Below, one piece after another: positions 18,994 through 47,938 of a stretch of DNA of 64,000 bases. Both the position numbers and the translations under genes were made by a program. The notes under the pieces were generated by a model. The model saw only the letters and a list, made by a program, of their open reading frames with translations, had not been told where the DNA came from and made no database searches. Every line of letters begins with the position of its first letter. The first letter of the stretch is position 1. The DNA is from a virus (lineage: Duplodnaviria; Caudoviricetes), in the IMG/VR virus record IMGVR_UViG_3300021511_000252, positions 24,141 through 88,140 of that record, one strand, 5' to 3'.

Positions 18994-18994
18994 A

Positions 18995-23225: not shown

Positions 23226-23609
23226 CTATTTCTTCTTCTTTTTCTTACTTTTAGGCTTCGCCTTTTTCTTTGCTTTCTTAGCCCCTCCAACAATGGAAGG
23301 ATCTACATCAGCAAGCTGAGCCTTCAAAGTTGAAGAAGGACGAAATTTAACAGCCACTTTTTCTGGAATTTCAATACTCTCTCCAGAATGTGGATTCCTG
23401 CCCGTTCTAGCTCCTTGAACAACAGCTTCAAACTTACCAAACTTAGGAACTGCGATACTTTCTCCACTGACAAGTGCTTGTGTAGAAATATCAAATACAC
23501 TCTTGACAATTTCATAAACACCACTTTTCGTTAGAGCAGGAACTCCAGAATCTTCATCTTGATCAATTCTGAGATGAACTTCCTTCGCCAATTCAGCCAA
23601 AGATACCAT
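23226..23609 (-). CDS. hup: HU/IHF-family DNA-binding protein with Lys-rich tail
   Basis: IAVPKFGKF....ARTGRNPHSGESIEIPEK..VKFRPSSTLK. Confidence 0.95.
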   Translation of the reverse strand: MVSLAELAKEVHLRIDQDEDSGVPALTKSGVYEIVKSVFDISTQALVSGESIAVPKFGKFEAVVQGARTGRNPHSGESIEIPEKVAVKFRPSSTLKAQLADVDPSIVGGAKKAKKKAKPKSKKKKKK

Positions 23610-23644: not shown

Positions 23645-24223
23645 CTACAAGCCAACCTTATTAACTATTTCATTAACAACTTTTAAGACACTGGGAATAT
23701 TAAATTCCCTTCGGATGATATTTAGGGCATTCAAATAAATTCCGCGAAAAGCTTGATTCCCTATTTCAATTTCAGTTACAGCATATATGAGAATTTCAAA
23801 TTTATCCATACAAGCAACCAACTGACCTTCTGGGGAATCATCCTTCGCTGTCAACCAAGCTTCTTTTAATTTCAACCCTGTAATTTCAGGAAGCTCTTCG
23901 AAAATTTTCTCCTTAACACATTTTTCCCGAATATAATCAAGCCTTTCTTTAAAATCAGGATTTTCGTCATGTAAGGGATACAATATATCTCCCGTTTCAC
24001 ACTCTTCTAAGTCATGAACCAAAGCTTTTTGAAGAACAAGCTCTAAATTATAATAATAACCTTCAAGCCTTTCATTTTCTAAGTGAGCAAAGACCATAGC
24101 GTACAAAGCCAGATAAAAAGAATGTTGAGCAACAGAATAAGGCTTTATATGGGGAAGATTACTGCATCTATCTATATAACGTAATTTTTGAACTCGATCA
24201 AAGAAATCAAATTTTTCTTCCAA
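23645..24223 (-). CDS. HD-domain 5'-deoxynucleotidase (YfbR-like)
   Basis: LRYIDRC..YSVAQHSF, ALVHDLEECETGDI, DKFE motifs. Confidence 0.85.
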   Translation of the reverse strand: MEEKFDFFDRVQKLRYIDRCSNLPHIKPYSVAQHSFYLALYAMVFAHLENERLEGYYYNLELVLQKALVHDLEECETGDILYPLHDENPDFKERLDYIREKCVKEKIFEELPEITGLKLKEAWLTAKDDSPEGQLVACMDKFEILIYAVTEIEIGNQAFRGIYLNALNIIRREFNIPSVLKVVNEIVNKVGL

Positions 24224-25073: not shown

Positions 25074-25472
25074 CTATCCCCTCTCTCGGTTTTGTCCCTT
25101 GTTAAATTTCTTCTTTCTGAGCTTAGAACGATTTACTTTCGATATATCTAAAGAAATTCCATAAGGAATCTTCTTTTTTAAATCCCCTGTTCTTATTTCA
25201 GAAATTCTAGCTATAAATTTATACTTCGGCCATAGATCTGCTAAAAAAGCTGCAAGTTCTGCCCTTACATACCCTATTTTTTGATCTTTCTTTTTCCTCT
25301 TAACCATTACGGCTACTGCATTTTTATCAAATCTATTGTTTGGTTCTCTCTTAAGATAAACTTTTTCCTTCCCAGATAGACTAGAGATAATTTCTTGTCG
25401 ATCAAAAGGAAGATCTTCATTTCTAAAAGTTACTCCCTTAACAGTAATTTCCATACTAATCTCCAATCTCAA
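25074..25472 (-). CDS. Stand-alone HIRAN-domain protein
   Basis: VKGVTFRN, LKREPNNRFDKNAVAV, KIGYV.AELA. Confidence 0.9.
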   Translation of the reverse strand: MRLEISMEITVKGVTFRNEDLPFDRQEIISSLSGKEKVYLKREPNNRFDKNAVAVMVKRKKKDQKIGYVRAELAAFLADLWPKYKFIARISEIRTGDLKKKIPYGISLDISKVNRSKLRKKKFNKGQNRERG

Positions 25473-26046
25473 ATGATTTTCTTATTTGCCTTAAAGACAT
25501 AAACTCAGGTAAAATTTTTTCTGGTTCCATTACAGAAAGTAAAGGATCTCTAACCTCTTTGGATTTATATAATAAAATATCTAACCTTAAACCTGCCCCA
25601 TCAGAAATTGCCCCTAGAAGATCAAACTTTGAAAAATTTTCTTTTATAATTCGAGAGTGTTCTTTAGGGAGATATCCAATATCTGCACGAACCATTCCTG
25701 TATCTACAAAAACTGCAATCGCATTAGAGTCATACTTATTATTTGGTTCCGGAATTAACTTTAAGTATTTTTCCATATATTTTTTTCTTGCAGGAATTGC
25801 ATCTTTATCAAGTAATTGAATGATTTCATACCGACAATCTGGTTCCCCAAGGATTACATCTTTCCCATGAACTCTAACAAAATCAGCAATTATTCTTCTT
25901 CGAGAAAAATCTCTAACAAGTTCACTTTTAAAATTAACCCCTACAATTTTTGGATTATAATAATAAATTCCTTCATACCCGAAAAGAGAACGAGTTAAAA
26001 AGACCTCTCTATCGGTTCGTTTAGCTCTCATAGAACTACAATCCAA
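25456..26046 (-). CDS. HIRAN-domain protein with insertion
   Basis: IVGVNF ... LIPEPNNKYDSNAIAV ... IGYLPK. Confidence 0.85.
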   Translation of the reverse strand: MDCSSMRAKRTDREVFLTRSLFGYEGIYYYNPKIVGVNFKSELVRDFSRRRIIADFVRVHGKDVILGEPDCRYEIIQLLDKDAIPARKKYMEKYLKLIPEPNNKYDSNAIAVFVDTGMVRADIGYLPKEHSRIIKENFSKFDLLGAISDGAGLRLDILLYKSKEVRDPLLSVMEPEKILPEFMSLRQIRKSFEIGD

Positions 26047-29000
26047 TGCCCTGGCTCCAAAACTTTATTCTTCCTTCTTCTATCAGCACTTACTGCGATT
26101 GAAGACTCTTTATTCCAAACATTTTTCTTTCCAGAAACAATAATCATACTCCCCACATCAAATTCTAAATTTTCTTCTATTAATTCTAGACTCTCTGGAA
26201 ACAAAATTACCTTCTGTTCTCCATCTTTATTTTTAATGTGAATATAACACATTAGAGTATCCCGAACAGTCTTTCGAAAAATTTTCTTCGTGACTTTGCC
26301 ATAAGTTCTAAGAGGCCCATTCTGCCTAAGCCTTTCAAACTCTTTTAGAGAAGTAAAAGGTTTATACTCTTCTATCTGATCTTTATATAAGCTTTCTAAA
26401 GGATAAGTCTCAAACCCATACAGATTTTCTCGAGCCAAAAGGAAATTTTCTTTAGAAGAAAAAGCTAAGGGCATTTCTTTTTCAAGTTCTTTCTTTCCTT
26501 TGATTGCTCTGTATTCTAAAAGAACATCTTTTGCTTTTCCGAATTCCTTAAACACTCCCGCTATAGCTAATGATTCTACAATTCTACTATTACATGCCCT
26601 TCTGTTGATTCGATTATAAAAGTCTTCTATAGAATCATACGGAGCATTTTCAATAATAGTAGCCGAAGCTTTTTCCCCTAAATGTTTTATTGCGGTAATA
26701 GGCCACTCTATACGTGTCCTACATGGCTCGAAAATAGCTTTTGGGTGGTTTATATTAGGTAAGTTAAATTTGATACCGTAATGGCTTTCTGCGATCATTT
26801 TTGCATTAGAAATTTTATCATGAGGAAGGTATCGAAGATGACAAGCAAAAAATTCTACAGGATAATGTACTTTAAGATACTGGCAAATATATCCGAGAAG
26901 AGCATAACTAGAAGCATGACCTCTTGGAAACAAATAGCTACCAGCTTGAGAAAACTTCTTCCAAATCTGTTCAGCAACCTCTTCTATATCTTCCTCGCCA
27001 GACCACTTTTTCATTGCTCCTTCAATAAATTTCTTTTTGTAGCTCTTAAATACTTTAGGATTTTTTCCTTTAATAATCTTCCGAAGAGCATCAGCCTTTT
27101 TAGGGTGCATACCTGCAAATTCACTTGCTGTCCTTAAAATATGCTCACTAAAAACAAGAACTCCAAGGGAATCATTTAAAATATTCTTTAAAGAGTGATG
27201 ATCATATTTAACAAGAGAGGGATCTTTCTTTCTTTTAGAAAAAGATTTATCAGCATTTGCAGACAAGGCTCCTGGGCGAGCAAGAGCATTGATGACAATA
27301 AGATCATTAAATTCAGTTATGTTCACCATATCTACAATCTTCTTAGCAGAACCTCCACTAAACTGAAAGACCCCAAAGACCTCCCCTTCATTAAACTTAT
27401 TAAAGGTTGCTTCATCTTCTAAATCTAATTCATAAAGGTTTATTTCTTCCCCTTTTGTTTTCTTTACAAGGTCAATAACTTCAGAAACAACAGAAAGGGT
27501 TCTTACCCCTAAAATGTCAAGAACCATTACTCCAATTTCATTTAAGTCTTCTCTACTCGTATGGGAATTTTCCCATACTGTAGAAATAATCCTTTCGCTT
27601 TTCTTTGCAGGGTTTACTTGTGTTCTAATAGGAAGAAGCTCATCTACTTTTCCAGGAGTAAGAACTACTCCTGCAGGATGTAAAGATGAATTCCTTACAT
27701 TTCCAACGAGAGGAGAAATAAATGTATCTACAGCTCTTGAATTGCCATTACACCATTCATCGAAAAATTCATACTTCTCCCTTGCACTCTCTAAAGATAG
27801 TCCATCTTCCATTCCAGAAGTTATCTTATTTATAATTCCAAATTGATAACCTTTTTGGAGATTAAATATTCTATTTGCTTCTTTCTTATCTTCTTCTAAA
27901 AGAGCATCTTTTCTTTCAACTTCTAATCGATCTTTAAGGACTCTAGTAACATCTTTAATAGCTCCCTTCAATTGCATTCGATTATAAGTCCCTACAGATA
28001 CAACTCGATCTTCTCCATACTTTTCTCTTAAATAGCTAATAGCTTTACTTCTAAATTCTGAGCGAACATCAATATCTATATCAACATCATTAAGGGATCG
28101 ATACTTACTAATAAACCTTTCAAACATAATACTATGTTTTATAGGATCTATTAACCCGAATCCAAAGATAAAAGCAATAAGACTACCATTAGCTGACCCC
28201 CTAATGAGAGAAAAAGCACCTTCGTTTCTTACATAATTCAGAAGATCATCACATATAAGAAAATAATCTACCGCCCCAAGACTAACAAGGGTCTTATATT
28301 CATAGATAATTCTTTTTCTATAAATAGAATTTTCAAATTGCTTCTTACTAAGTATTTTCTTGGCTCGATAAAGAAGCATTTCTTTAAAGAACTTATCTTT
28401 ATTTCCAATTGGAAATTTTTTATACAAAAAATGAGTAGTATGGTCATAGGTAGGAAAATAAAGATTTCCAGTAGGAATCTGATAAGTGCATTCTTCTGCA
28501 ATCTTAAGACAATTATCTATAGCAGATCTAAATATCTTCTTAGGAATAGATCTTCTTTGGTCTCTTATGTCTTCCCATTCTTTTAAAGATTTTAGATAAT
28601 TCTCGGGAGCATCGTATGCAAAGCCCCCCTTAGTAGCCATTTCCATTACTAATCTTTGGACACTATGTTCTCCTTTATGTACGAAATGAACATCATTAGT
28701 AACTACAAAGGGAATATTAAGTTTCTTACCTAACTGAATCAAATGCTTATTAACTACATCTTGATCAGAATAATCCACTAACTGAAGTTCTAAATAAAAA
28801 TTTTCTCCAAATTCTTCTTTCATCCTTTTAGCTACTTTTAGAGCTGTTTTGGGTTTCTTATTTAAAAGAAGCTCAGGGATGATCCCTTTAGTACATGCAG
28901 AAGTGCATACAATTCCCTCTTTGTGTTTAAATAGTTCAGAAAAATCTAATCTTGCATTATAATAGAACCCCTTTGTCCACGCAAAATTATTCAAAGCGAT

Positions 29001-29339
29001 TAAATTCTGAAATCCCGCCTTATTTTTAGCCAAAAGAAGAATATGATTAGCAGTCCTATATTTTTCTAATTCCCCTTTCTTCAAGTCTTTTTTCTTTCTA
29101 TCATCTTGCATCTTCTTAACACTTTGAACAAAGTATGCTTCAAGGCCCATTATAGGAGATACATTGAACTTGGAAGATTCTATGGTTGCTTCAGCTAAAG
29201 CCCCTAAATTTCCATGGTCTGTTATGGCAAGATGAGTCATCTCCAATTCATCACATCTTTCAAAGTAAGAAGAGGGGGAAGGAATCCCATCTAATAATGA
29301 AAACATTGTATGAACATGAAGCGAAGGGAAACTCTTCAT
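26028..29339 (-). CDS. dnaE: DNA polymerase III alpha subunit (DnaE)
   Basis: PHP LHVHTMFSLLDG, RGSANGSL, DVDIDID, HPAGVV, DILG, FPRGHASSYA, C-terminal OB fold; no intein. Confidence 0.97.
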   Translation of the reverse strand: MKSFPSLHVHTMFSLLDGIPSPSSYFERCDELEMTHLAITDHGNLGALAEATIESSKFNVSPIMGLEAYFVQSVKKMQDDRKKKDLKKGELEKYRTANHILLLAKNKAGFQNLIALNNFAWTKGFYYNARLDFSELFKHKEGIVCTSACTKGIIPELLLNKKPKTALKVAKRMKEEFGENFYLELQLVDYSDQDVVNKHLIQLGKKLNIPFVVTNDVHFVHKGEHSVQRLVMEMATKGGFAYDAPENYLKSLKEWEDIRDQRRSIPKKIFRSAIDNCLKIAEECTYQIPTGNLYFPTYDHTTHFLYKKFPIGNKDKFFKEMLLYRAKKILSKKQFENSIYRKRIIYEYKTLVSLGAVDYFLICDDLLNYVRNEGAFSLIRGSANGSLIAFIFGFGLIDPIKHSIMFERFISKYRSLNDVDIDIDVRSEFRSKAISYLREKYGEDRVVSVGTYNRMQLKGAIKDVTRVLKDRLEVERKDALLEEDKKEANRIFNLQKGYQFGIINKITSGMEDGLSLESAREKYEFFDEWCNGNSRAVDTFISPLVGNVRNSSLHPAGVVLTPGKVDELLPIRTQVNPAKKSERIISTVWENSHTSREDLNEIGVMVLDILGVRTLSVVSEVIDLVKKTKGEEINLYELDLEDEATFNKFNEGEVFGVFQFSGGSAKKIVDMVNITEFNDLIVINALARPGALSANADKSFSKRKKDPSLVKYDHHSLKNILNDSLGVLVFSEHILRTASEFAGMHPKKADALRKIIKGKNPKVFKSYKKKFIEGAMKKWSGEEDIEEVAEQIWKKFSQAGSYLFPRGHASSYALLGYICQYLKVHYPVEFFACHLRYLPHDKISNAKMIAESHYGIKFNLPNINHPKAIFEPCRTRIEWPITAIKHLGEKASATIIENAPYDSIEDFYNRINRRACNSRIVESLAIAGVFKEFGKAKDVLLEYRAIKGKKELEKEMPLAFSSKENFLLARENLYGFETYPLESLYKDQIEEYKPFTSLKEFERLRQNGPLRTYGKVTKKIFRKTVRDTLMCYIHIKNKDGEQKVILFPESLELIEENLEFDVGSMIIVSGKKNVWNKESSIAVSADRRRKNKVLEPGHWIVVL

Positions 29340-29340: not shown

Positions 29341-30501
29341 CTAATGCCTCCTTATGTAATCTTCAATTTTTTCAATTGAAAAAGATGAAAGCGATTTTCC
29401 TTCAAACCTACTTCTTGTAAGACTTAAAGCTTTTGCCAGATTACCCCCTGGTCTAGAAAGGAATTCTATGGCAGAAACAAAAATATCATCAGCCTTAACG
29501 TAAATTAAAAATTCCATCGCTTCAGAAAGATTATTATTTTTATAATGATAAAAACTTTTGGCAAGAATAAGTCCATCTTGTAAATAATTAAAAGAAGGAA
29601 CAATCGCAGAATTATCAAACTTTCCTTTTCTTATATCTTCTTCTATCTGAAAAAATAATTTCAGTTCAAAATCTAAATGTTGGACTCTATCTTCTTTAGG
29701 AAGATCCATTTCGAAAGGCAACGGCCTTACATGCTCATAAACATTGAAAGAATATTTTGCACCAAGAACACTTTTAGTTATATCTCCCTGGAAATCATAA
29801 GCGTGGAGACTGTTAATCATATGGATTTGCCTTCCTATCGGAATTTCTAATAACATTGCCATCGTTTCAAGAATTACAGAAAATTGGACAACATTTGTAT
29901 TACAAAGACCGTATGTTATATCATTAGATCTATTAAAAATAGTAAGATCTAACTTCCCTTCCCTAATTAAAAACTGAAACGCTATGTTACAAGGACGGTC
30001 ATTAGTTTCAATTTCAAAATGATCTAAAAAAGGATTCCAATAGATCATAACTGCTTGCCGAGTGGAAGAATCTTTTAGAAGAGCATTATAACAATCTTCG
30101 AACTGATCTCTTAATTGAATCTTCGGAGTTCTTAAAGAAAAAGTTCTATGACTTCCCCACTCTCTCATTCGAACTCCATAAGGAGCATGGAACTCCTTTT
30201 GTTCGTCTGCATATTTTTTCATATTCCCAAGATAATATTCTATAAATTCAAGATCTCCTCTTCCTCCTAAAATATATTCACTTTCTTGCATTTGAAAAAA
30301 AGGATGAATCATTCTTCCCGGACAAGTTAAAAATCTTTCCCTTGGCTTATTGATAATCACCATAGCAGGACGAACTTCTTTAGTCGATAATCCTCTCGGA
30401 GAAATTTCCATTCCTCTTTCAATTATTCCATCCAAGGTATCTTTGTAAAAATCATTTACTCCGTCACCTTCAACAACAAAAAATCTAGAATCTTCTATCA
30501 T
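29341..30501 (-). CDS. Thymidylate-synthase homologue, probable dUMP hydroxymethylase-type
   Basis: TRQA, DRPCN catalytic Cys, RSNDITYGLCNTN, SLHAY; long C-terminal extension absent from classical ThyA. Confidence 0.8.
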   Translation of the reverse strand: MIEDSRFFVVEGDGVNDFYKDTLDGIIERGMEISPRGLSTKEVRPAMVIINKPRERFLTCPGRMIHPFFQMQESEYILGGRGDLEFIEYYLGNMKKYADEQKEFHAPYGVRMREWGSHRTFSLRTPKIQLRDQFEDCYNALLKDSSTRQAVMIYWNPFLDHFEIETNDRPCNIAFQFLIREGKLDLTIFNRSNDITYGLCNTNVVQFSVILETMAMLLEIPIGRQIHMINSLHAYDFQGDITKSVLGAKYSFNVYEHVRPLPFEMDLPKEDRVQHLDFELKLFFQIEEDIRKGKFDNSAIVPSFNYLQDGLILAKSFYHYKNNNLSEAMEFLIYVKADDIFVSAIEFLSRPGGNLAKALSLTRSRFEGKSLSSFSIEKIEDYIRRH

Positions 30502-30517
30502 GATTACAACCCCAAAT

Positions 30518-30751
30518 CTAGAGAGTTTTTATTCCGCCATCTTCATTCTTTATCTTAACAATAACTCTTCTGTTAGGCCCAGATTTAATAAAAGATTTTT
30601 CTCTCCCTTTATCAATTCCTAAAAGGGAATCAATAAACCCTTTGTAATCTGTAACAGCTAAAGTAATTTCAATCATATCTGGACCTACAACTTCTTCAAC
30701 ACAAACATGAGGTGAATTGAATTTCAAATGTAATCCTTTATTCTCTTCCAT
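30518..30751 (-). CDS. Hypothetical protein
   Basis: 77-aa ORF, GGAGG RBS. Confidence 0.7.
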   Translation of the reverse strand: MEENKGLHLKFNSPHVCVEEVVGPDMIEITLAVTDYKGFIDSLLGIDKGREKSFIKSGPNRRVIVKIKNEDGGIKTL

Positions 30752-31019
30752 CTCCCTCCTCCTCCTTTTCTTTTTTAAAGTCTATATCTCCAAAAGTATT
30801 AAACAGAAAATTTAACCCAAAATATCTAGATACAAAGAAAAAAACCAAAGAGAAAAGAAAAAATAAAGAACTCATCCCCATTCTTCCTCTACCAAAAAAG
30901 AAAATTGCCACACCGAGAAACGCCCCTCCAACAAAGGATAAGAATAAACTCTTATCAATAGAATTATAAATTGCACTCCTCAAATTTTCTTCAGGAAATA
31001 CTGAATCTTCATTATCCAT
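30738..31019 (-). CDS. Small two-TM membrane protein
   Basis: Start re-called at MDNEDSVF; two hydrophobic segments. Confidence 0.65.
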   Translation of the reverse strand: MDNEDSVFPEENLRSAIYNSIDKSLFLSFVGGAFLGVAIFFFGRGRMGMSSLFFLFSLVFFFVSRYFGLNFLFNTFGDIDFKKEKEEEGDGRE

Positions 31020-31078
31020 TTCATTTCCTCTTTTTACAAGTAAATACCTAAATCCAACAGGCAATAGCATATATATAA

Positions 31079-31681
31079 CTATACTGCTTTTTGTATAGAG
31101 ACTTCTTTACTAAATTCATTCTTTAAAAGAACAATTAAACCAAGAGCTGACCATTCATACTTTCTCTTAGGATGTTCAACCAAATGCTTAATTGGATACC
31201 CTAATACTTTTAAAGACCTCATTCTTGATCTTGTAGTTAAGGGAAGAGCACACATCCCTTCTCTTCCTTTAACTATTGGAGTAGGGCAATCTTGACAAGA
31301 ATGCTCTACAAAAAAAGCAAGAGCTTCATGATAGCCCTGTCTTACAAATTGTAACCTAAGAGAATATAATTCTTTTTGGAATTTAACTAACTGATAAGAA
31401 ACGAGATTCTTCCCCGGATGAGAAAAGATATGGTCGGATAATCTTATTCCTCGATACACGGTTTTTTTAGCTTTATACTCACACCAGGGACAAAGAAGGC
31501 CATTGACTTTCTCCCTAAATGGCTTCTCAAATAAGATAGCTTCTCTTCCTGCAATTATATCTACAAACTGTTTAAAAGTTATTCCCATAGAGTCAAAATC
31601 ATACAAGAAACAAGCTTGAGGCTTTTTAATCTTAGGTGTCCACCGCTTAACCTTAACAAAATCCACGATCTCTGGGAGCAT
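31079..31681 (-). CDS. Divergent DUF2284-like metalloprotein with C2H2-type finger
   Basis: CPWC-x16-H-x3-H, then L....F..GY..ALAF...SCQDC...C....R.SL..LG resembling the DUF2284 C-terminal half. Confidence 0.55.
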   Translation of the reverse strand: MLPEIVDFVKVKRWTPKIKKPQACFLYDFDSMGITFKQFVDIIAGREAILFEKPFREKVNGLLCPWCEYKAKKTVYRGIRLSDHIFSHPGKNLVSYQLVKFQKELYSLRLQFVRQGYHEALAFFVEHSCQDCPTPIVKGREGMCALPLTTRSRMRSLKVLGYPIKHLVEHPKRKYEWSALGLIVLLKNEFSKEVSIQKAV

Positions 31682-31682
31682 A

Positions 31683-32315
31683 TTATCTTTCCTTCTTAAT
31701 TGCCATAAGAGTTACTTGGGTAAGATAAGACATTACCGGATATTCATATTCCACGCCTAACTTTTCCAGAAGAGAATAAACATTTATTCCTGTAGCTTCT
31801 AAAGAAGTTAAACCATGCCTTTTACAAGGAGGATGTTCCCTCTGGGGACATTTTCTTTTACATAAATCGCAATGCCCTTGAATATATGTTTCCGCTTTAA
31901 ATCCTTGCCTTCGATTAATTTTTCTTATCTTATACATTAGAAATGTAAGATATCTCGCACTTACACTTTCTATGCCCTTTAGCTGTCTTCCGCTTGTAAC
32001 TTTTCTCAGCCTAAAATGGGCATATTCTTCTTGCTCTCTCTTGTACCAGAACCTTTTAGTCCCATCATTCCTAAAAATATAAACATAAATTTCATCAAAA
32101 GAATTAAAATATTCTATAGAAGAATCTATTGTTCTATACTGAGGATAAGTCTGATACAATAACGGAGGACATAATATTCCTCTATTATATAAACCACAAT
32201 TCTGACACAATACTCTAGCATAAGCAGTTATAGGAAGATCTTTAGGGGAAATTTTAAAAATCTTATAAATAAACTGAGGAAAGTTTTTTTCTTTTACATA
32301 TTTTACTTTTGGCAT
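31683..32315 (-). CDS. DUF2284-family predicted metal-binding protein
   Basis: RVLCQNCGLYN....CPP; GHCDLC...C......C....TSLEATGINV. Confidence 0.8.
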   Translation of the reverse strand: MPKVKYVKEKNFPQFIYKIFKISPKDLPITAYARVLCQNCGLYNRGILCPPLLYQTYPQYRTIDSSIEYFNSFDEIYVYIFRNDGTKRFWYKREQEEYAHFRLRKVTSGRQLKGIESVSARYLTFLMYKIRKINRRQGFKAETYIQGHCDLCKRKCPQREHPPCKRHGLTSLEATGINVYSLLEKLGVEYEYPVMSYLTQVTLMAIKKER

Positions 32316-32323
32316 TTCTACCT

Positions 32324-33661
32324 CTAAAAAATTTTCTTTCTGAAGAATTTAATTCCCTCGTTAGAAGCCTTTTTTAACTCGGGACTTAACTTTCCCCTTA
32401 CTCGCTTGTTAAAAAGGCCACAAGCTTTACCATTTGCAAGATCAATAAAATCTTGAGCAATTTTTTTCCTGTCGAACATATACATCAAGTTATAATTATT
32501 AGAAATTATAGCTTCAGCTTCGTCTTTAGATAACGAACTCCCATATTCTACAATTTTCCCATACTCTTTCGGAATAGCATCATATGGAATCATTATATAA
32601 TTTTCGTTAGGCTTAAATACTTGACCTACTCCGCTAGAATCGTTTGACATCCCAAGGTTAATAGCAATAGGAATGGTTCCTCTCTTTATTGCGTCTACTA
32701 TCACTCTATTAAAATGACTTCCATATTTATTATACCTTCTAGACCAAGAAGAATCTACTAAAGTTCGAACTTGACTAAGGATTACATCTCTCTTAAATGG
32801 AGAAATGAATCCAAGATAATCCATTCCATAATGTAAGGCTCTATCCCAAATTCTAGTATTGGAAGTTTCTAAGAATTCTGGAAGATCAGGATCTTCTGCT
32901 TCTCTGCAATAGTATTTATCTTTTACTTTATCTTTCGAGACCATATATCTCTGCTCTATGCCGCCTCCCGCAACAAACTTTTTTATATGATCTCCCATGT
33001 ATGGAATTGCCCTAATTAAATTGTCAACATGTTTCCAAGATTTAAAGACTTGAAGAGAAAGAAAGCCAGGAGATCTTTTATCATAATCATAAACCTCTTC
33101 TATTCCAGAAAGATCTTGAGGGTTGAGAATTAATGCTCTAGGAACATCTAGATTCCTACCGAGATTGAAGGCGCATTCATGGACACAGGCTATTCCATCA
33201 AAATACTTACGAATTCCTGCAATCCAAGGAATATTAAATAAATTACCATCATGCAAAATAGCTATAGATTTTTGACAAGCTGAATATAGATACAGCCAAT
33301 CAGAATTTCCTTGATTTGCTTTGGATTTAGAAGGAACAGGAACTTCCCAAATTACAAGATCGTATTTAGAAAGAGTATCTTTTGTCTTTTTTAAATTCTC
33401 CTCTCCCTTATACGAAAGCTTATGTTTCCAAGGAACAGCATTCCACCCTGCCTGTTGATTAACTACACAAAAAGCTCCATTGACCCATCCTCTTCTGAGA
33501 AGCTCTCTATCTTGGTAAGGTCGCCTGAAAAAATCCTGATAATAAAGAATATGAAAATTAACCTGATGCCCTAACTCTCTTAATCCAAAAGCTAATTCTT
33601 CAACATGGTTAATTATCCCCCCTAAATCTGAAATTGGATATATTACAAGAGCAACTTTCAT
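32324..33661 (-). CDS. GT-B glycosyltransferase resembling T4 DNA alpha-glucosyltransferase
   Basis: Start re-called at MKVALVIYP; GGI..HV..L..GH.V, DLVIWEVP, ILHD, SWKHV, DA..RGTIPI match motifs of T4 AGT as I recall them. Confidence 0.7.
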   Translation of the reverse strand: MKVALVIYPISDLGGIINHVEELAFGLRELGHQVNFHILYYQDFFRRPYQDRELLRRGWVNGAFCVVNQQAGWNAVPWKHKLSYKGEENLKKTKDTLSKYDLVIWEVPVPSKSKANQGNSDWLYLYSACQKSIAILHDGNLFNIPWIAGIRKYFDGIACVHECAFNLGRNLDVPRALILNPQDLSGIEEVYDYDKRSPGFLSLQVFKSWKHVDNLIRAIPYMGDHIKKFVAGGGIEQRYMVSKDKVKDKYYCREAEDPDLPEFLETSNTRIWDRALHYGMDYLGFISPFKRDVILSQVRTLVDSSWSRRYNKYGSHFNRVIVDAIKRGTIPIAINLGMSNDSSGVGQVFKPNENYIMIPYDAIPKEYGKIVEYGSSLSKDEAEAIISNNYNLMYMFDRKKIAQDFIDLANGKACGLFNKRVRGKLSPELKKASNEGIKFFRKKIF

Positions 33662-33683
33662 AATTCTTTCTCCATTAGTTTTT

Positions 33684-34625
33684 TTATTTACATTGCCCTT
33701 CAACACAAAATGCATCTGCATAATTTGGATTAAGATGAACAATTACTGGCAAAACAATATCCTTATGAGCTTTTTTTATCATTCTTTGATAAATTTTCCA
33801 ATCTTCCTCGGACATCCTCTTCTTTAGAACTTTTTCTGTAGTTACCCACCCATACGTTCTAGTTACACTAAAGCCTATATTCTTAAGAATTTTAACTAAT
33901 TCTTCAGGATTATACTCGTACACATGAAAATCATACCCTTTAGAATTTCTCCTAACTGGAGTCGAGATGAAATATTTTCCTCTTTTACGAAGAACTCTAT
34001 GCATTTCTTTCAAAAGAAGAATAGCATATTTTTCTTCAAAATGTTCTAAAGTTTCACCAAGAAAAATGCAATCAACAGAATTAGATTTAACGAAATTTAA
34101 AGGAAAAGTTATATCATGTTGAATAAACATAACAGGGGTTCTAGATGCCCCTACAGCTTCAAATCCTTGAGTAAGGCGCTCATCATCTATATCTACCCCC
34201 ACATAAAGAGGGTTTTTATAATAAAAAGACCCACTCATAATCTTTCTAATTTCTCCTACATCACAGCCTAGATCCAACACCCTAGCTCTTCTTTTCTTGA
34301 AGACAGGAACTCGGGCTGACCATTCATAATGTCTATTAAGCCAACTTAATCTTCTAGAATATCGAACCATACCTCGGCCAATCTCCTCCAGCATAAAGGC
34401 AGTTCCACAATTTTCTATTCCGGAATTATGAAGATTTTCCTTTAGCTTTTTCGCTAAAAATAAAAAAGCCTTACTTTTTACAGCAGGCTTTCTTTTTGAT
34501 CTTCGAAGAACACTTAAATCAATAAAAGAACCAAAGGCGGTTTCTATTTCAGAAGATACTTTCTCAACTTCCATCTTTTTCTCCAAAAACATAGAGACTA
34601 GATAAATTCTAGCCTCTATGTTCAT
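33684..34625 (-). CDS. Class I SAM-dependent methyltransferase
   Basis: VLDLGCDVG, VGVDID, HDI, GETLEH, HRVLR..G..FISTP. Confidence 0.9.
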   Translation of the reverse strand: MNIEARIYLVSMFLEKKMEVEKVSSEIETAFGSFIDLSVLRRSKRKPAVKSKAFLFLAKKLKENLHNSGIENCGTAFMLEEIGRGMVRYSRRLSWLNRHYEWSARVPVFKKRRARVLDLGCDVGEIRKIMSGSFYYKNPLYVGVDIDDERLTQGFEAVGASRTPVMFIQHDITFPLNFVKSNSVDCIFLGETLEHFEEKYAILLLKEMHRVLRKRGKYFISTPVRRNSKGYDFHVYEYNPEELVKILKNIGFSVTRTYGWVTTEKVLKKRMSEEDWKIYQRMIKKAHKDIVLPVIVHLNPNYADAFCVEGQCK

Positions 34626-34654: not shown

Positions 34655-35566
34655 CTATTTTTTCTTTTTCTTCCCTCCCTTTTTTCCTTTAGCTTTCTTC
34701 TTAGACTTCTTCTTAGGTTCTTTCTCTTCAACTTTCTTCTTAGATTTCTTCTTAGGTTCTTTCTCCTCAACTTTCTTCTTGGACTTCTTCTTAGGTTCTT
34801 TCTCTTCAACTTTCTTCTTGGACTTCTTCTTTGCTCCAACTACGTTCTTAGCAAACCATTCACTATACTGTTCAACAATTTTAAGCCCATCGTCTATAGC
34901 TGTTTTAGAAACGGCAACCTTGACCGCCTTATAAGGCTTTGTCCAGTAATCACACATCTTTTTAAGACTTTTACCTTTAGGCTGGAAAAACTTTTCATCA
35001 TCAATTACCGACTTATTAAGCCAAAGATAAATTTCTCCTTCTTTAGCTTGCTTAACAATGCTGCAAAAATTAGGCCCATCTTTTCCAAGAGTAACAATCG
35101 TAATTGATTTTTTATGAACTACCTTTCCAAATTCCTCAAGGCCCTTCAGAAAAGGCTTAAAAGAAATAGGGACTACAGTCTGTTCTCCCCCAACTTTAAG
35201 TCGGTCTACTTTAGGCCCACCGCCACCGCCACCTCTGTTTGATTTCTTAGGCTTAATCTTCTTTCCAGGAAATCGAGCTTTTTCCGGAGGAAGCTCTTCT
35301 TCCTCTTCTTCCTCTTCTTCCTCTTCCTCTTCTTCTTCCTCCTCTTCTTCTTCTTCTTCTTCCTCCTCCTCTTCTTCTTCTTCCTCTTCCTCTTCCTCTT
35401 CTTCCTCCTCCTCTTCTTCTTCTTCCTCTTCCTCTTCCTCTTCTTCTTCCTCCTCTTCCTCCTCTTCTTCTTCTTCTTCAAGTTCGTCTTCTAAATCTTC
35501 CTCCTCATCTTCCAATTCTTCATCTTCAAAATCCATGTCCTCAAATTCATCCTTGTCTTTTGCCAT
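34655..35566 (-). CDS. Bipolar low-complexity protein (poly-Glu N-terminus, KKKSKKKVEEKEP repeats at C-terminus)
   Basis: About 60 consecutive Glu; three 13-aa repeats; globular core between them. Confidence 0.8.
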   Translation of the reverse strand: MAKDKDEFEDMDFEDEELEDEEEDLEDELEEEEEEEEEEEEEEEEEEEEEEEEEEEEEEEEEEEEEEEEEEEEEEEEEEEEEEEEEEEEEELPPEKARFPGKKIKPKKSNRGGGGGGPKVDRLKVGGEQTVVPISFKPFLKGLEEFGKVVHKKSITIVTLGKDGPNFCSIVKQAKEGEIYLWLNKSVIDDEKFFQPKGKSLKKMCDYWTKPYKAVKVAVSKTAIDDGLKIVEQYSEWFAKNVVGAKKKSKKKVEEKEPKKKSKKKVEEKEPKKKSKKKVEEKEPKKKSKKKAKGKKGGKKKKK

Positions 35567-35655: not shown

Positions 35656-36636
35656 CTAAAATAAATAAATCTTGCTTTTTTTTATAGAATCTTTTATTTT
35701 TTTTACAGATGACTCATCAGGGTCTTTCCCATTAGGGAGAATACATACTCTAACTTCCTTATCGATACAAACCTTTGAAAGGAGATTATGAATTTTCTTA
35801 AGATTTTTTATGGGGACAGACCCATCCAACATAAGGAAAATTCTCTCAGCTTCAGTCCGGGATAAAAGGTGGACTTGCCTATTGCTAACAGAGCTCCCTA
35901 AAAGACCCACGGCGGAAAGATTAAGTGCTCTCATCTTTAACACATCCCATATCCCTTCTACAACAAAAATATTCTTTTTATAAATTACGTCATTATACCC
36001 ATATAACACCTCCGACATAAAAGATTTCTTAGGAAAGAGTGATTTTCTATACTTTCCCCCTTTTTCTTCTGCCAATTCTTTAGCTTCCCTAAAGGCTTTT
36101 TTACTTAAAGCTGTAACCGCAGTAAAAGTCTCAGTTCTTAAAGTTTTAATTGGGAAAACTATTCTATTAAAATATTTTCCCCCCTGATTACAAATTAAAG
36201 CTCCTGTCTGAACAGCAAGCTCATAACTTACCTTCCTTTCCTTAAACACTTTAGGAAATCTTTCTCTTGTTATCTTCTTTAACCCCATAGGAAGGGGATT
36301 CTTAAAATATACCTCTTGAAAATCTAAGCTCTGAGAGCCTAACCGTACCTCTTCTAATAGCCCCCTAACCTTACCCCTTAACCCGTCCGGCGAAGTGTCC
36401 CTCCCCCGCTTACAGAGCTCCAGAGCGACATCAACATTAATATCAAAGACCGCCATTAAAAAGGCAACAGCATTACACGCCCATTTACATCTATGACAAA
36501 TTCCAAGATTCTTTTTGACGTTATAATAAAAATGATCTTCTTTATCACACGAAGGACAAGTCATCAAAATTTCTTTATCGTTAATCACGCGATATGAAAT
36601 TGCCTTATCTTTCAATATGTCTTTAATATCAAACAT
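35656..36636 (-). CDS. dnaG: DnaG-like primase (zinc-binding domain + Toprim)
   Basis: CPSC...H...CHRC, RIVFPI, FVVEGIWD, LLG, MLDG, KDPDE. Confidence 0.9.
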   Translation of the reverse strand: MFDIKDILKDKAISYRVINDKEILMTCPSCDKEDHFYYNVKKNLGICHRCKWACNAVAFLMAVFDINVDVALELCKRGRDTSPDGLRGKVRGLLEEVRLGSQSLDFQEVYFKNPLPMGLKKITRERFPKVFKERKVSYELAVQTGALICNQGGKYFNRIVFPIKTLRTETFTAVTALSKKAFREAKELAEEKGGKYRKSLFPKKSFMSEVLYGYNDVIYKKNIFVVEGIWDVLKMRALNLSAVGLLGSSVSNRQVHLLSRTEAERIFLMLDGSVPIKNLKKIHNLLSKVCIDKEVRVCILPNGKDPDESSVKKIKDSIKKSKIYLF

Positions 36637-36885: not shown

Positions 36886-38076
36886 TTATTTCTTTTCAAC
36901 CTTCACAATAGAGAAAGGAGACTCTACAAATTTACCATTAATGAACTCGTTATAAATTGAATACAAAAGAGAAATGTTTTTCTCCCCTTGCAAATGATCT
37001 ACTGCATTTAATATATCTTCCGGAGAAATAACAGAAAAACAAGGAGAAGGGAACCCTTTATCACAAGGACTATGTCCATGAATAAAACTTGGAGCACACT
37101 TAACCCCGCAATCTATTCCAATAGCATTTTTATAATACTTCATTCTAATTTTAGAAGGAAAACATCCATAAAGACCAACGACAGGAACGCCTAGTCCTCC
37201 TGCAATATGTACAAAGGCAGAATCAGGAGCAATTATTACATCTAAAAGACTAACTATCGCAACAGATTCCCTTAAAGGTTGATCTGCAGAAATTAAATTT
37301 ACAAAATTTTTCTCTCCTAAAAGAATTTCTTGTAAATACTTTCCCACCCCTTCCTGTCTTTTTCCTCCAAATACAAAAACAACATATCCTTTCCCAAGAA
37401 ACTTTTTGGTAACAGCAATTATTTTATCTAAAGGAATAGTTCTAATAGGAGAAGAAGCTTCTACTTGAATTCCTATTTTTTTAGCACCAGTATCAATTCC
37501 AAATTCTTTAACTTTCTTTTTTGCTATGGAGATTTCACTATCTTCCAAATAGATCTTTGGAATTTTTTCTTCTGCAGAAATTTTTGTAAAATCTACTCCT
37601 GCTTCTTCTAAAAATAAATCAACCGCATGGAGTTTTTGAGCCCTTTCTGGATTATCTTCTATTGCTCCTTCAAAAATTAAATGGTAGTTACTCTTTTCCA
37701 TTTCTTTTACATCAAAAGGCATCTGAACAACCTTCTTGATGTATGGATTTCCATTTATTACAGCAGAATACATAGGAGAAGTTCCAAGCTTAATTGTTAC
37801 TCCATACTCCTTAATTAAATGCACAGCTAAGGGGACCATAAACATCACATCTCCTATCCCCCCGCTTCTAAACAAAAAAACTTCATCTCCTTTTTTTAAT
37901 TTTTCAAGATCTACCTTTCTATATACATCTTCAAATTTTCTTGTTTGACTTAGTCCTCCAGGATAAAGCTTTAAAAGCTGCCGCATTACAGCCCCAGACA
38001 TAACATACTCATGATTCTTCTTTAAAGTCAGCCCTTGATAAACTCCCAAATCTATAAATAATTCAACAATAACCAC
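36886..38076 (-). CDS. GT9 (heptosyltransferase-like) glycosyltransferase
   Basis: RSGGIGDV, ASSPIRT.P, IAPDSAFVHIAGGLG.P.VGLYG, HGH..C...C. Confidence 0.9.
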   Translation of the reverse strand: MVIVELFIDLGVYQGLTLKKNHEYVMSGAVMRQLLKLYPGGLSQTRKFEDVYRKVDLEKLKKGDEVFLFRSGGIGDVMFMVPLAVHLIKEYGVTIKLGTSPMYSAVINGNPYIKKVVQMPFDVKEMEKSNYHLIFEGAIEDNPERAQKLHAVDLFLEEAGVDFTKISAEEKIPKIYLEDSEISIAKKKVKEFGIDTGAKKIGIQVEASSPIRTIPLDKIIAVTKKFLGKGYVVFVFGGKRQEGVGKYLQEILLGEKNFVNLISADQPLRESVAIVSLLDVIIAPDSAFVHIAGGLGVPVVGLYGCFPSKIRMKYYKNAIGIDCGVKCAPSFIHGHSPCDKGFPSPCFSVISPEDILNAVDHLQGEKNISLLYSIYNEFINGKFVESPFSIVKVEKK

Positions 38077-43108: not shown

Positions 43109-43915
43109 TTAAGACTTCTTCCCTGTAACAATCGCCATCCGACACCGAAGTCTATAATCTCCATTCGACAAAGGCAACATTGCATACGCATCTTTGAATT
43201 CTTTAGAAGCTTCTACATGCATAGAATAGAGAAGAGCTTTCTTTTCTGAAGTTAAAGTATGATCATTAAGCCAACTATTAAGACTTATATCAAATCTATA
43301 AGTTAAGAATTGAATATTCATAAATCCAGAATTTTCAACAAGCCCCAAAAGATCTTGAAGAAGATAACAATTTCTTCGCTCTTTAATTCTAAATATATCT
43401 TGATAATAATCGAAAATCTTTTCATCTGGAGGGATAGCTTCTGCTATAAGAACAAAACCATTTTTTTTTAAAAGACCATAGGCTTTATCTACAGCTAATT
43501 GATCTCTTCCATCTATAAGATGGTGAATGAATAGACTCATCATTACAAGATTAAAAAAGGGAGAAAGATTAGGAATGAAATTAAAGAAATTAGATCTAAC
43601 AAACTTAAGATTAAAGGCTTGTTTCAAATTAGCTGCATCTACCATTTTCTGTGACAAGTCTACACCTATGACGTTAGAGTGTCTGAAATTGTCCCTAACA
43701 ACCTTCGTTATATTTCCCGCCCCGCAACCTGCATCCAATATCCACGATCCTGCATTTAGTCCTAACGGCTTTATCATACTCACTATCTTATAAGCAGTTC
43801 TCTTGGACTTAACATCATCAAGATCTCTATACGTATTAGCTCTTTTTTCCCAAAAATCAAAATTAGACAAATCCTTCTTCATATATTTGACCTCCCCCTC
43901 CAAGCGAATATCCAA
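43109..43915 (-). CDS. Class I SAM-dependent methyltransferase
   Basis: ILDAGCGAG, GVDLS, LFIHHL. Confidence 0.9.
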   Translation of the reverse strand: MDIRLEGEVKYMKKDLSNFDFWEKRANTYRDLDDVKSKRTAYKIVSMIKPLGLNAGSWILDAGCGAGNITKVVRDNFRHSNVIGVDLSQKMVDAANLKQAFNLKFVRSNFFNFIPNLSPFFNLVMMSLFIHHLIDGRDQLAVDKAYGLLKKNGFVLIAEAIPPDEKIFDYYQDIFRIKERRNCYLLQDLLGLVENSGFMNIQFLTYRFDISLNSWLNDHTLTSEKKALLYSMHVEASKEFKDAYAMLPLSNGDYRLRCRMAIVTGKKS

Positions 43916-44120
43916 AAGATTCTATCAACTTGTTTTCTTCTTTTTGCGCTTTAAATCTCGGGCATTTACTACAAGAAAAACTCTTCCAGTTCTTCGCTAT
44001 TGCTTTATCTAAACATTTATCATATCTTTTACAATCCAAATTCCTATGCTCAGCCATATGAGAAAGACTAAATGGCCTATCTAGCTTTGTCATAACAATT
44101 CGAAGAGACATATATCTTAG
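43863..44120 (-). CDS. Small 4-Cys protein
   Basis: RNLDCKRYDKCLDKAIAKNWKSFSCSKC motif; start uncertain. Confidence 0.65.
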   Translation of the reverse strand, partial: LRYMSLRIVMTKLDRPFSLSHMAEHRNLDCKRYDKCLDKAIAKNWKSFSCSKCPRFKAQKEENKLIESFGYSLGGGGQIYEEGFV

Positions 44121-44121
44121 A

Positions 44122-47936: not shown

Positions 47937-47938
47937 GT

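Follow-up and report, generated by a model that had tools for sequence, protein, structure and literature searches.

Does the stretch of genes directly upstream from dnaE in a large uncultured phage from hydrothermal vents encode the replacement of thymine by a modified base and the glycosylation of that base in DNA? The 64,000 nucleotides analyzed here (the window) belong to record IMGVR_UViG_3300021511_000252, which comprises 88 kb of a genome estimated at about 138 kb (completeness of about 64%). We consider it fairly probable that the locus forms a pre-replicative module for thymine replacement and DNA glycosylation. The contig was built from ordinary metagenomic libraries, which weakly disfavors a very bulky modification.

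Organization and conserved core of the operon

Seven tightly packed ORFs, all on the minus strand, fill positions 29341–34625. They encode a 313-aa class I SAM methyltransferase of the small-molecule type (33684–34625), a 445-aa GT-B (GT4-like) glycosyltransferase with an ATG start, which is a candidate 5-hydroxymethyluracil (5hmU)-DNA glycosyltransferase (32324–33661), a 210-aa Cys-rich metal-binding protein of the DUF2284 family (Pfam PF10050; 31683–32315), a 200-aa Cys/His-rich protein, designated o200, predicted to be the partner of the latter (31079–31681), a 110-aa ORF whose translation contains a hydrophobic Phe-rich stretch, possibly a small membrane protein (30738–31070), a 77-aa ORF assigned to no family (30518–30751), and a 386-aa thymidylate synthase (TS)-fold protein, predicted to be a dUMP hydroxymethylase (29341–30501). 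From the methyltransferase to the TS homologue, the successive gaps are 22, 8, 1, 8, –14, and 16 nt. The TS gene lies 1 nt upstream from dnaE (26028–29339, minus strand), which encodes a DnaE-type replicative polymerase (1103-aa ORF) at the downstream end of the operon. The original prediction placed seven genes with gaps of about 20 nt or less between primase and dnaE; the spacing was confirmed, but an eighth gene, encoding a 303-aa poly-Glu/Lys-rich protein (34655–35566), intervenes on the primase side, 89 nt from primase (35656–36636) and 29 nt from the methyltransferase gene. The sequence motifs reported initially for the TS homologue (RSND and the Asn of GLCNTN) and for the GT-B protein (DLVIWEVP, ILHD, SWK, and RGTIP) were all found in the translations. 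The TS homologue, initially described as having a long C-terminal extension, is 386 aa long, versus 264 aa for E. coli ThyA.

The junction between the TS and DnaE genes is kept in L002, G001, and L097, and the DnaE orthologue of L002 contains PHP, DNA_pol3_alpha, finger, and HHH_6 domains. The 77-aa ORF had no match in Pfam, PHROG, or NCBIfam searches and is weakly similar to its positional counterpart in L002 (30% identity, E 7e-7). The 110-aa ORF had no family match, and the 112-aa ORF occupying its position in L002 has no detectable similarity to it.

GT-B, DUF2284, o200, TS, and DnaE occur together in four divergent lineages (24–62% identity for GT-B). Two DUF2284 metalloproteins had been proposed. 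The 210-aa protein clears the PF10050 cut-off (61.5 bits for a cut-off of 25), whereas o200 does not (12.9 bits, E 0.09) and hhalign gave a probability of about 1% (E 0.22 and 0.05). Assignment of o200 to DUF2284 was therefore rejected; judged by its sequence, o200 represents a small Cys/His family of its own, with just 21 representative clusters in a set of 1.84 billion proteins and with C24, C64xxC67, H84xxxH88, C129xxC132, and C144 as invariant residues. Modeling predicts that the two proteins form a heterodimer, with an ipSAE of 0.72 versus 0.00 for the best control. For comparison, 58 of 80 solved complexes and 2 of 110 mismatched pairs reached that mark. Three runs shared at least 68% of contacts, with a partner pLDDT of at least 78.

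The heterodimer would be a metal-binding component, probably Fe-S/Zn, of the same conserved module, and our best guess is that it assists the tailoring of the base or sugar, in a redox or DNA-binding role. Alternatively, the pair may be regulatory or structural, for instance a zinc-finger DNA-binding factor of the replication operon, and play no part in base modification. The C2H2-like CxxC...HxxxH motif of o200 is consistent with this alternative, as is the absence of the pair from the 18 other TS-linked loci and from all TET-linked GT-B loci. We consider it possible but rather unlikely, in view of the invariable location of the pair between GT-B and TS in the four lineages, of the radical SAM-SPASM enzyme adjacent to it in two lineages, and of the conservation of DUF2284, which ranks second among the proteins shared by G000 and G001 (44% identity versus 54% for GT-B and 37% for DnaE). 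In addition, a named selenoprotein family combines DUF2284 and a SAM methyltransferase in one fusion protein (PMC13188914).

The methyltransferase matched Methyltransf_11/23/25 (about 1e-10) and, in NCBIfam, only generic UbiE/UbiG-like models, far under their cut-offs; no DNA-methylase family was present among its Pfam, PHROG, and NCBIfam matches. An orthologue is present in L002 (47% identity) and none was detected in the G001 record or the L097 locus. The methyltransferase is thus lineage-specific and outside the conserved core, so its role in sugar tailoring, proposed originally together with that of the Fe/Zn proteins, is a guess. It may, together with a nearby GT9 (heptosyltransferase-like) enzyme, lengthen or further modify the sugar in this lineage. 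The GT9 gene (36886–38076, minus strand; PF01075, 8.6e-13) is located between DnaB and primase, as is its orthologue in L002 (51% identity), and a GT9-like gene follows DnaB in G001; a second sugar-adding step is a possible function.

The GT-B glycosyltransferase and its likely acceptor

The GT-B fold of the 445-aa glycosyltransferase was assigned with confidence. Fold searches retrieved GT4 enzymes and the T4 α-glucosyltransferase (AGT), which tied with ordinary GT4 enzymes; DNA glycosyltransferases and GT4 enzymes acting on lipids or small molecules were not separable by this approach. Profile comparison revealed no sequence relationship to T4 AGT or BGT, and relatives of the protein carry a GT4 Pfam domain. 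The initial description as T4-AGT-like is therefore valid for the fold and not for the sequence. With GT4 enzymes and AGT as its fold neighbors, the protein may plausibly form a retaining, alpha-type linkage. A tblastn search of 50,697 phage records with GT-B and the DUF2284 protein gave no match, and no cultured phage was found to carry either.

Gene context provides the best evidence for the role of the GT-B protein. Orthologues were found in 84 viral loci, which are not independent (69 distinct GT-B sequences in two clades), and in 76 of them the orthologue lies next to a gene for a TET/JBP dioxygenase or for a TS homologue of the dUMP type. The TET/JBP gene is located just upstream in 54 loci, whose GT-B proteins are 38–45% identical to that of the window. 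A TS homologue lies close by in 22 cases (inside the locus in 21, just past its end in one), and the TS-linked and TET-linked GT-B proteins form two sister clades. Among the 20 TS-like neighbors that were aligned, taken from the loci with a TS match, all harbored RS-x-D (RSND in 19) and all had Asn at the N177 column. A crude motif search detected no C5 cytosine methylase motif in any of the 84 loci. Together, the nature of these neighbors and the lack of a cytosine methylase motif indicate that 5hmU in DNA is the likely acceptor. The order of the genes is comparable to that of T4 (b-gt, gene 42, then DNA polymerase). The context argues strongly for direct glycosylation of 5hmU in DNA by the GT-B protein, with neither a kinase nor a transferase step, as anticipated; the only P-loop kinase seen in the 88-kb record is an APS kinase.

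The GT4-like enzyme would transfer a sugar from a nucleotide-sugar to the 5-hydroxymethyl group in the DNA polymer, bypassing the 5-hmU DNA kinase and amino-acid:DNA transferase routes. The product would be an O-glycosyl-hmU, probably of retained (alpha) configuration, of the type of trypanosome base J. Unlike the GT-B protein of the window, the transferase of base J (JGT) is GT-A, as are the similar phage enzymes that have been tested. We found no report of glycosyl-5hmU from a phage in the searchable literature. Phage clusters combining TET/JBP (5mYOX) enzymes and glycosyltransferases have been described (Burke 2021, PMC8256090; Pyle 2023, bioRxiv 10.1101/2023.12.21.572611), as have phage T-dioxygenases of the TET/JBP type (PMC13229309). 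In contrast to these systems, the hydroxymethyl group would be formed before replication by the TS homologue, with no need for O2. GT-B/ThyS and GT/T-dioxygenase neighborhoods are already in the literature (Pyle et al., bioRxiv 10.1101/2023.12.21.572611; PMC13229309), and the cassette is less new than stated.

An improbable alternative is that plain 5hmU replaces thymine, as in SPO1, and that the GT-B protein, the methyltransferase, and the sugar genes serve targets other than DNA (host envelope, teichoic-acid-like polymers, or virion proteins). About 20 further carbohydrate genes, absent from the original prediction, are interleaved with replication genes in the window and form a full polysaccharide-style toolkit: several GT2, a GT4, two GT9, a TagF-like glycerophosphotransferase, a Polysacc_synt_2 dehydratase, an epimerase, a cupin, and a sulfotransferase, in addition to the APS kinase. 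The solved folds closest to the GT-B protein act on lipids or small molecules, and about 65% of phage glycosyltransferase contigs are unlinked to base modification (Pyle et al., bioRxiv 10.1101/2023.12.21.572611). However, the family adjoins TET/JBP or dUMP-type TS genes in 76 of 84 loci and is embedded in replication modules, and G001 shares GT-B, DUF2284, o200, TS, and DnaE with the window and none of the large sugar island.

Glycosylation of 5hmU in DNA invites comparison with SP-15, YerA41, and Carin-5 (PMC9023294, PMC13697223), which also combine a thymine-derived base carrying sugars, many glycosyltransferase genes, a UDG function, a TS homologue, and a deaminase. In these phages, unlike the window, the sugars are attached via a carbon linker (dihydroxypentyl-type), some genomes encode aGPT-Pplase, and the polymerases are of the A family with a fused UDG; no sequence relationship to the window GT-B was detected.

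The TS homologue and the proposed supply of the modified nucleotide

The TS homologue matched PF00303 (2.5e-18) and phrog_5131 (2.7e-71), and its best phage matches were the dUMP hydroxymethylases of SPO1, SP8, and SP10. SPO1 gp29 is the nearest characterized relative (40% identity over 241 aa, E 4e-59), ahead of E. coli ThyA (E 8e-15) and T4 gp42 (E 1e-10). At the diagnostic positions defined for TS-like hydroxymethylases and hydroxylases (PMC13326640), the catalytic Cys is present, Asp replaces L143, a hydroxymethylase marker, retention of Asp169 sets the protein apart from 5-hydroxy synthases, and the N177 column is occupied by Asn, pointing to uracil as the base. Identification as a dUMP hydroxymethylase, as first proposed, is thus well supported at the sequence level by every published diagnostic position and by the nearest characterized relatives.

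The possibility that the protein is an ordinary TS or performs other C5 chemistry, such as that of the flavin-dependent 5-hydroxylase of the RB69 gp48 type, with an acceptor other than 5hmU, appears very unlikely. The protein does belong to PF00303, unexpected chemistry is known for TS homologues (PMC13326640), and the tree that we built was poorly resolved and gave no strong support for grouping the protein with SPO1/SP10. However, the Asp at L143 and RSND with Asp169 distinguish it from methyl-forming TS and D169N hydroxylases, Asn177 speaks against dCMP as substrate, its scores were far under the cut-offs of all NCBIfam TS models, and flavin hydroxylases require O2, which we infer to be at odds with the hydrothermal vent origin of the samples. 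Synthesis of a free modified nucleotide or nucleoside, as by the CMP hydroxymethylase MilA of mildiomycin synthesis, the best PDB sequence match of the TS homologue, is scarcely credible for genes within a phage replication operon ending in DnaE, with sister GT-B proteins paired with TET/JBP enzymes that act on DNA polymers (PMC13229309) and no exporter or further nucleoside-antibiotic genes seen.

The dUMP hydroxymethylase assignment brings the locus close to the pre-replicative 5hmU pathway of SPO1, SP8, and SP10, which involves gp29, a dCMP deaminase, and a dTMPase (PMC8989533). The TS homologue shares with gp29 a similar length (about 385 aa) and the PCN, RSND, and Asn motifs, but the C-terminal extensions are not alignable. 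The window also encodes a dCMP deaminase, a 5'-deoxynucleotidase, and an HU-like protein. It differs by an unrelated host and phage lineage, by a DnaE-type polymerase, and by a dedicated GT-B enzyme in place of the bare 5hmU of SPO1 or the 5-hmU DNA kinase and transferase of SP10. The T4 glucosyl-hmC system relies on the gene 42 dCMP hydroxymethylase and alpha- and beta-glucosyltransferases, and modifies cytosine (Asp) rather than uracil (Asn).

In the proposed pathway, dUMP supplied by the phage dCMP deaminase (58575–59063, minus strand; PF00383, 2.1e-20) would be converted by the TS-fold enzyme into 5-hm-dUMP, a step well anchored in the sequence. Kinases encoded outside the identified genes of the incomplete record would yield 5-hm-dUTP, and the DnaE-type polymerase would insert 5hmU into DNA instead of thymine; the record, which is about 64% complete, yielded no dNMP kinase, dUTPase, or dTTPase. 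Stray uracil may be excised by the phage uracil-DNA glycosylase superfamily protein (57215–57820, minus strand; PF03167, 2.4e-21), such enzymes being reportedly typical of phages with T-modified genomes (PMC13697223). A YfbR-like HD 5'-deoxynucleotidase (23645–24223, minus strand; PF12917, 1.4e-28) is the candidate dTMP-depleting enzyme and probably removes dTMP; YfbR homologues adjoin the TS gene in four other loci (L016, L017, L059, and L081).

Organization and conservation of the cassette

The window corresponds to the final 64 kb of an 88,140-bp IMG/VR virus record, for which CheckV estimates a completeness of 64%. The GC content is about 33%, almost every gene is carried by the minus strand, and the same DNA was found in hydrothermal-vent metagenomes of several studies. 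A nucleotide search of GenBank phages with the cassette revealed nothing similar. Positions 29341-34625 are filled by seven minus-strand ORFs separated by gaps of 22, 8, 1, 8, -14, and 16 nt, and a 1-nt gap separates the last ORF from dnaE (26028-29339). In the order of transcription, these ORFs encode a class I SAM methyltransferase (33684-34625), the 445-aa GT-B protein (32324-33661), a DUF2284 protein (31683-32315), the 200-aa Cys/His-rich protein o200 (31079-31681), two products of 110 and 77 aa encoded between o200 and the thymidylate synthase (TS) homologue, and the 386-aa TS homologue itself (29341-30501). Every motif cited in the original prediction was present in the translations. The seven-gene run was also recovered as described between the primase gene (35656-36636) and dnaE, although an additional gene located between the primase and methyltransferase genes had been omitted. 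The observations made at the outset were largely confirmed and their interpretation partly supported. Scanning for promoters and terminators gave the result expected for shuffled sequence and was uninformative on the operon.

The product of the omitted gene (34655-35566, minus strand) is 303 aa long and has a run of about 75 Glu residues, a middle part that looks folded, and a Lys-rich C-terminal tail containing three KKSKKKVEEKEP repeats. A homologue displaying 53% identity over part of the protein is present in the related viral locus L002. This poly-Glu protein could be a DNA mimic or be histone-chaperone-like. Directly downstream of dnaE, two consecutive minus-strand genes (25074-26046) encode HIRAN-domain proteins, one of which is kept in L002.

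The order GT-B, DUF2284, o200, TS, and DnaE was found in four lineages, represented by the window, by L002 and L003, by the distant relative G001, and by L097. Identity to the GT-B of the window was 62% for L002/L003 and about 54-55% for G001, and fell to 24% (E 1e-11) for the GT-B-like protein of L097. An orthologue of the cassette methyltransferase was detected only in L002, which additionally carries a second methyltransferase gene and a 186-aa ORF. A radical SAM-SPASM enzyme is encoded directly after GT-B in G001 and L097; the 88-kb record, itself about 64% complete, yielded no radical SAM enzyme. In G001 (locus L006, 11326-19485), the region between GT-B and DUF2284 contains, besides the radical SAM-SPASM gene, a TnpB/IS605 element, two HNH homing endonuclease genes, and genes for an amidase, a cupin, and a PfkB sugar kinase, indicating that the cassette tolerates mobile-element insertions. 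Only about 12 detectable proteins are common to G001 and the record of the window. Among these, GT-B (54% identity) and DUF2284 (44%) are more conserved than DnaE (37%), TS (33%), and the helicases (27%). That the modification proteins are more conserved than DnaE points to genes for modification that are either strongly constrained or laterally exchanged.

Predicted substrate and product specificity of the TS homologue

The TS homologue matched PF00303 (2.5e-18) and, much more strongly, phrog_5131. The catalytic Cys is present, the RPC motif being aligned to APC146 of the E. coli enzyme. According to Lee et al. 2026 (PMC13326640), methyl-forming TS enzymes have a hydrophobic residue at the position corresponding to L143 in E. 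coli, whereas hydroxymethylases have an acidic one, which lets water in and so leads to the hydroxymethyl product. In the TS homologue this column holds Asp, three residues ahead of the catalytic Cys (N-D-R-P-C), as it does in the dUMP hydroxymethylase SPO1 gp29 and the dCMP hydroxymethylase T4 gp42, the E. coli residue being Leu. Position 177 specifies the substrate, Asn selecting dUMP and Asp selecting dCMP (PMC13326640). The TS homologue and SPO1 gp29 both have Asn in this column, T4 gp42 having Asp. Taken with Asp169, which is kept in an RSND motif, the marker pattern of the TS homologue (NDRPC, RSND, Asn177) is that of SPO1 gp29.

Sequence comparisons pointed to the same enzymes. Among 50,697 phage records, the best matches were the dUMP hydroxymethylases of SPO1, SP8, and SP10, with 40% identity to SPO1 gp29 over 241 aa. 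The E-value of 4e-59 against gp29 is to be compared with 8e-15 against E. coli ThyA and 1e-10 against T4 gp42. The best solved relative by sequence was the CMP hydroxymethylase MilA. In a maximum-likelihood tree, E. coli ThyA and T4 gp42 occupied very long branches and the nearest characterised rows were SP10 and SPO1, although strong branch support was missing and the position of the TS homologue was not fixed by the tree. At about 140 aa, the C-terminal extension is similar in length to that of gp29 but does not align to it. A search for related loci with this single TS protein as the query found none.

Two other activities were considered. A 5-hydroxy-dCMP synthase of the RB69 gp48 or DLP3 gp80 type was rejected, since D169N, the mark of these flavin-dependent enzymes, occurs in them together with N177D (PMC13326640), and the TS homologue keeps both Asp169 and Asn177. 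A canonical ThyA was rejected on the basis of the Asp, rather than a hydrophobic residue, at the L143 column and of scores far under the cut-off of every NCBIfam TS model, the best being 72 bits for a cut-off of 174.55 and 54.5 bits for a cut-off of 327. The hydroxymethyluracil (hmU) synthase assignment made in the original prediction agrees with all three diagnostic positions, and, as judged from sequence, the TS homologue is very probably a dUMP hydroxymethylase, a well-supported assignment.

Several other genes fit the classical hmU pathway (PMC8989533), namely those encoding a dCMP deaminase (58575-59063, minus strand), a YfbR-like 5'-deoxynucleotidase (23645-24223, minus strand), a UDG (57215-57820, minus strand), and an HU-like protein (23226-23609). 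In four further loci, a YfbR-like gene is a neighbour of the TS gene. The phage matches of the HU-like protein were not retained as evidence because they include many Ackermannviridae and Bacillus phages and are not specific to SPO1 TF1. No dNMP kinase, including thymidylate kinase, no dUTPase, and no 5-hmU DNA kinase was seen in the 88-kb record, about a third of the genome being missing. The only Walker-A ORFs in these 88 kb encode the AAA/MoxR protein, a CobT-like protein, APS kinase, DnaB, the helicase loader, and a dehydratase; searching PHROGs with the remaining ORFs gave no match. A P-loop 5-hmU DNA kinase together with an aGPT-Pplase gene would mark the T-hypermodification pathway of M6, ViI, SP10, and phiW-14, which proceeds through an amino-acid:DNA transferase. 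Because the record is incomplete, the missing radical SAM, dUTPase, and thymidylate kinase genes do not show absence from the phage.

A GT-B family associated with 5hmU-making enzymes

The GT-B protein itself had no Pfam match at E-values up to 0.01 and no PHROG match. Many of its 228 homologues, among them orthologues displaying 40-62% identity, contain the GT4 domain PF00534 (Glycos_transf_1). An AlphaFold model based on 32 homologues (pLDDT 93.7, pTM 0.90) displayed the two-Rossmann GT-B fold, which is superposable on T4 alpha-glucosyltransferase AGT (CAZy family GT72). The protein had been described as T4-AGT-like. In the Foldseek comparison proposed to discriminate AGT and the T4 beta-glucosyltransferase BGT from GT4 enzymes, the top ranks were occupied by the GT4 enzymes HepE, BshA, PimA, glycogen synthase, and MshA (E 1e-12 to 1e-9), AGT appearing at ranks 38-50 (E about 5e-9). 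Profile comparison by hhalign gave a probability of 1.6% for a-gt, with a non-colinear match, and of 0.2% for b-gt. Searching PDB sequences with phmmer returned only noise, AGT being absent at E-values up to 1, and tblastn against the 50,697 phage records gave no match. Since GT4 enzymes lead the structural search and the profile comparison with a-gt and b-gt is empty, the likeness to AGT holds for the fold but not for sequence or profile. A GT-B enzyme that is GT4-like and probably retaining is the description that fits best.

The acceptor was approached through gene neighbourhoods. Scanning IMG/VR with the GT-B family alignment gave 271 confirmed matches on viral contigs, of which the best 80 were examined as loci; three further protein look-ups added four loci, for a total of 84. 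A TET/JBP dioxygenase gene was located 1.3-2.4 kb upstream of GT-B in 54 of the 84 loci. A TS homologue was encoded close to GT-B, downstream in nearly all cases, in 21; in G001, it lies about 10 kb downstream of GT-B, just beyond the end of the fetched locus. The neighbourhood survey called for by the original prediction thus paired GT-B with a TET/JBP dioxygenase or a dUMP-type TS in 76 of 84 loci, which are not independent and comprise 69 distinct GT-B sequences in two clades. The remaining loci are mostly short fragments cut near the GT-B gene, or a radical-SAM variant. In the latter (L005/L007, 6960-14741), a GT-B orthologue (48% identity) has two B12-binding radical SAM enzymes on one side and a DnaE-UDG fusion on the other, with neither a TS nor a TET gene in view; this variant may represent an oxygen-free, TS-independent route to the acceptor.

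All 20 aligned TS homologues from GT-B neighbourhoods had Asp at the L143 column, an RS-x-D motif (RSND in 19), and Asn at N177, and none was of the dCMP type. A crude motif search detected no C5-cytosine methylase in any locus, in agreement with reports that the phage dioxygenases linked to glycosyltransferases are thymine dioxygenases (PMC13229309). In the GT-B tree, TS-linked and TET-linked proteins separated with a single label change, and the TS-linked clade, which has 26 rows, includes the GT-B of the window. Since the substrate of TET/JBP enzymes is the DNA polymer, 5hmU in DNA is the simplest candidate for an acceptor common to the family. With gene context as the decisive basis, it is reasonably likely that the GT-B of the window glycosylates 5hmU in DNA.

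Specific and widespread, the family can be newly defined by its partners, which are almost exclusively makers of 5hmU, whether pre-replicative (TS-type) or post-replicative (TET/JBP). This pairing makes it a concrete candidate for a 'J-like' DNA glycosyltransferase family. Base J of trypanosomes is the known case of direct glycosylation of 5-hydroxymethyluracil, and the same kind of product, a glycosyl-5hmU, is predicted here. In the base J pathway, thymine is oxidized after replication by a JBP dioxygenase and glycosylated by the GT-A enzyme JGT, whereas the transferase of the window is a GT-B enzyme and the hydroxymethyl group comes from a TS homologue. The cassette would therefore work like base J synthesis without being a member of that pathway. 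The logic, a hydroxymethylase combined with a DNA glycosyltransferase, is that of T4, in which b-gt, gene 42, and the DNA polymerase gene are in an analogous order, and the hydroxymethylase is of the SPO1 type. Direct 5hmU glycosylation has been predicted for phages; no chemically characterised, directly glycosylated viral 5hmU was found in the literature searched. ThyS occurs in 28% of phage GT-B neighbourhoods, and mono- to tri-saccharides have been shown on 5hmC (Pyle et al., bioRxiv 10.1101/2023.12.21.572611). If the prediction is true, the cassette would extend the set of hypermodified thymines, supply new enzymes with which 5hmU could be labelled, and help explain how anoxic-vent phages evade restriction without O2-dependent dioxygenases.

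Accessory proteins and glycan genes

Two DUF2284 proteins had been proposed. The 210-aa protein fits this description, passing PF10050 with 61.5 bits for a cut-off of 25 and having only DUF2284 proteins in its nearest Atlas clusters. For o200, the DUF2284 assignment was not supported (12.9 bits, E 0.09 in Pfam; hhalign E-values of 0.22 and 0.051 with probabilities of about 1% or less). The reading of o200 as a second DUF2284 protein was dropped because BLASTP against DUF2284 and the two hhalign runs were not significant. Sub-threshold DUF2284 matches were obtained for 3 of 18 members of the o200 family, and the sole likeness is a C-terminal CxxC-x11-C spacing. The family comprises 21 representative clusters among 1.84 billion proteins, its invariant residues being a C2H2-like CxxC...HxxxH motif together with C24, a CxxC, and C144; Atlas look-ups gave only 'DUF2284' and weak C2H2 leads.

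Complex prediction for DUF2284 and o200 gave an ipSAE of 0.72, the best control scoring 0.00; 58 of 80 solved complexes attained this mark, as did 2 of 110 mismatched pairs. Contacts agreed by at least 68% across three runs, the partner pLDDT was at least 78, and the predicted interface joins the Cys loop of DUF2284 (residues 30-51) to the regions of o200 around C24 and C144. The confidence of the prediction, rather than a measurement, supports a heterodimer. The pair is new as a conserved, predicted heterodimeric component, and the locus provides the first functional context for DUF2284 together with a previously unnoticed partner family. No literature on DUF2284 function was found, the sole hint being its fusion to an ArsM-type methyltransferase in a named selenoprotein family (PMC13188914).

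The cassette is a small part of the carbohydrate genes of the window, which lie on the same strand and are interleaved with replication genes, forming a very large glycan toolkit in a vent phage, itself a new element. The main island (43109-60222) encodes a GT4 (44122-45177), six GT2-like proteins (between 47088 and 58597), a Polysacc_synt_2 dehydratase, an epimerase, and a cupin (47939-49960), a TagF-like glycerophosphotransferase (55797-56816), a GT9 (59122-60222), and several SAM methyltransferases, all on the minus strand; the window contains four SAM methyltransferases besides that of the cassette, also on this strand. Another GT9 gene (36886-38076, minus strand) has its position kept in L002, and a GT9-like gene follows DnaB in G001, which lacks the island. 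Minus-strand genes for a sulfotransferase (45471-46187, PF13469) and an APS kinase (12080-12475, PF01583, 5e-23) were also identified, which suggests that the phage provides for itself the PAPS needed to sulfate some glycan or other acceptor.

A scheme joining all these genes is, taken as a whole, unlikely. GT-B would prime 5hmU, and GT9, GT2, and GT4 enzymes would lengthen the sugar to an oligosaccharide carried by the DNA and methylated and/or sulfated, with the nucleotide-sugar pathway, methyltransferases, APS kinase, and sulfotransferase all provided by the phage and with DUF2284-o200 acting as a new class of Fe-S/Zn enzyme on modified DNA bases under anoxic conditions. An adduct comparable to the 1-kDa adduct of YerA41 (PMC9023294) is weakly disfavoured because the contig was assembled from ordinary libraries.

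Elsewhere in the window, a plus-strand block (7481-11393) encodes a MoxR/CbbQ-type AAA ATPase, a CobT-like VWA protein, and a sigma-70 region 2 protein. A pentapeptide-repeat protein (12918-13754, minus strand; PF00805, 1e-41) may mimic DNA or have an anti-defence role. The minus-strand genes at 16028-20059, downstream of RecA, encode a RuvC-like resolvase, a 646-aa SbcC-like protein, and an SbcD-like phosphoesterase, and constitute an ordinary recombination module.
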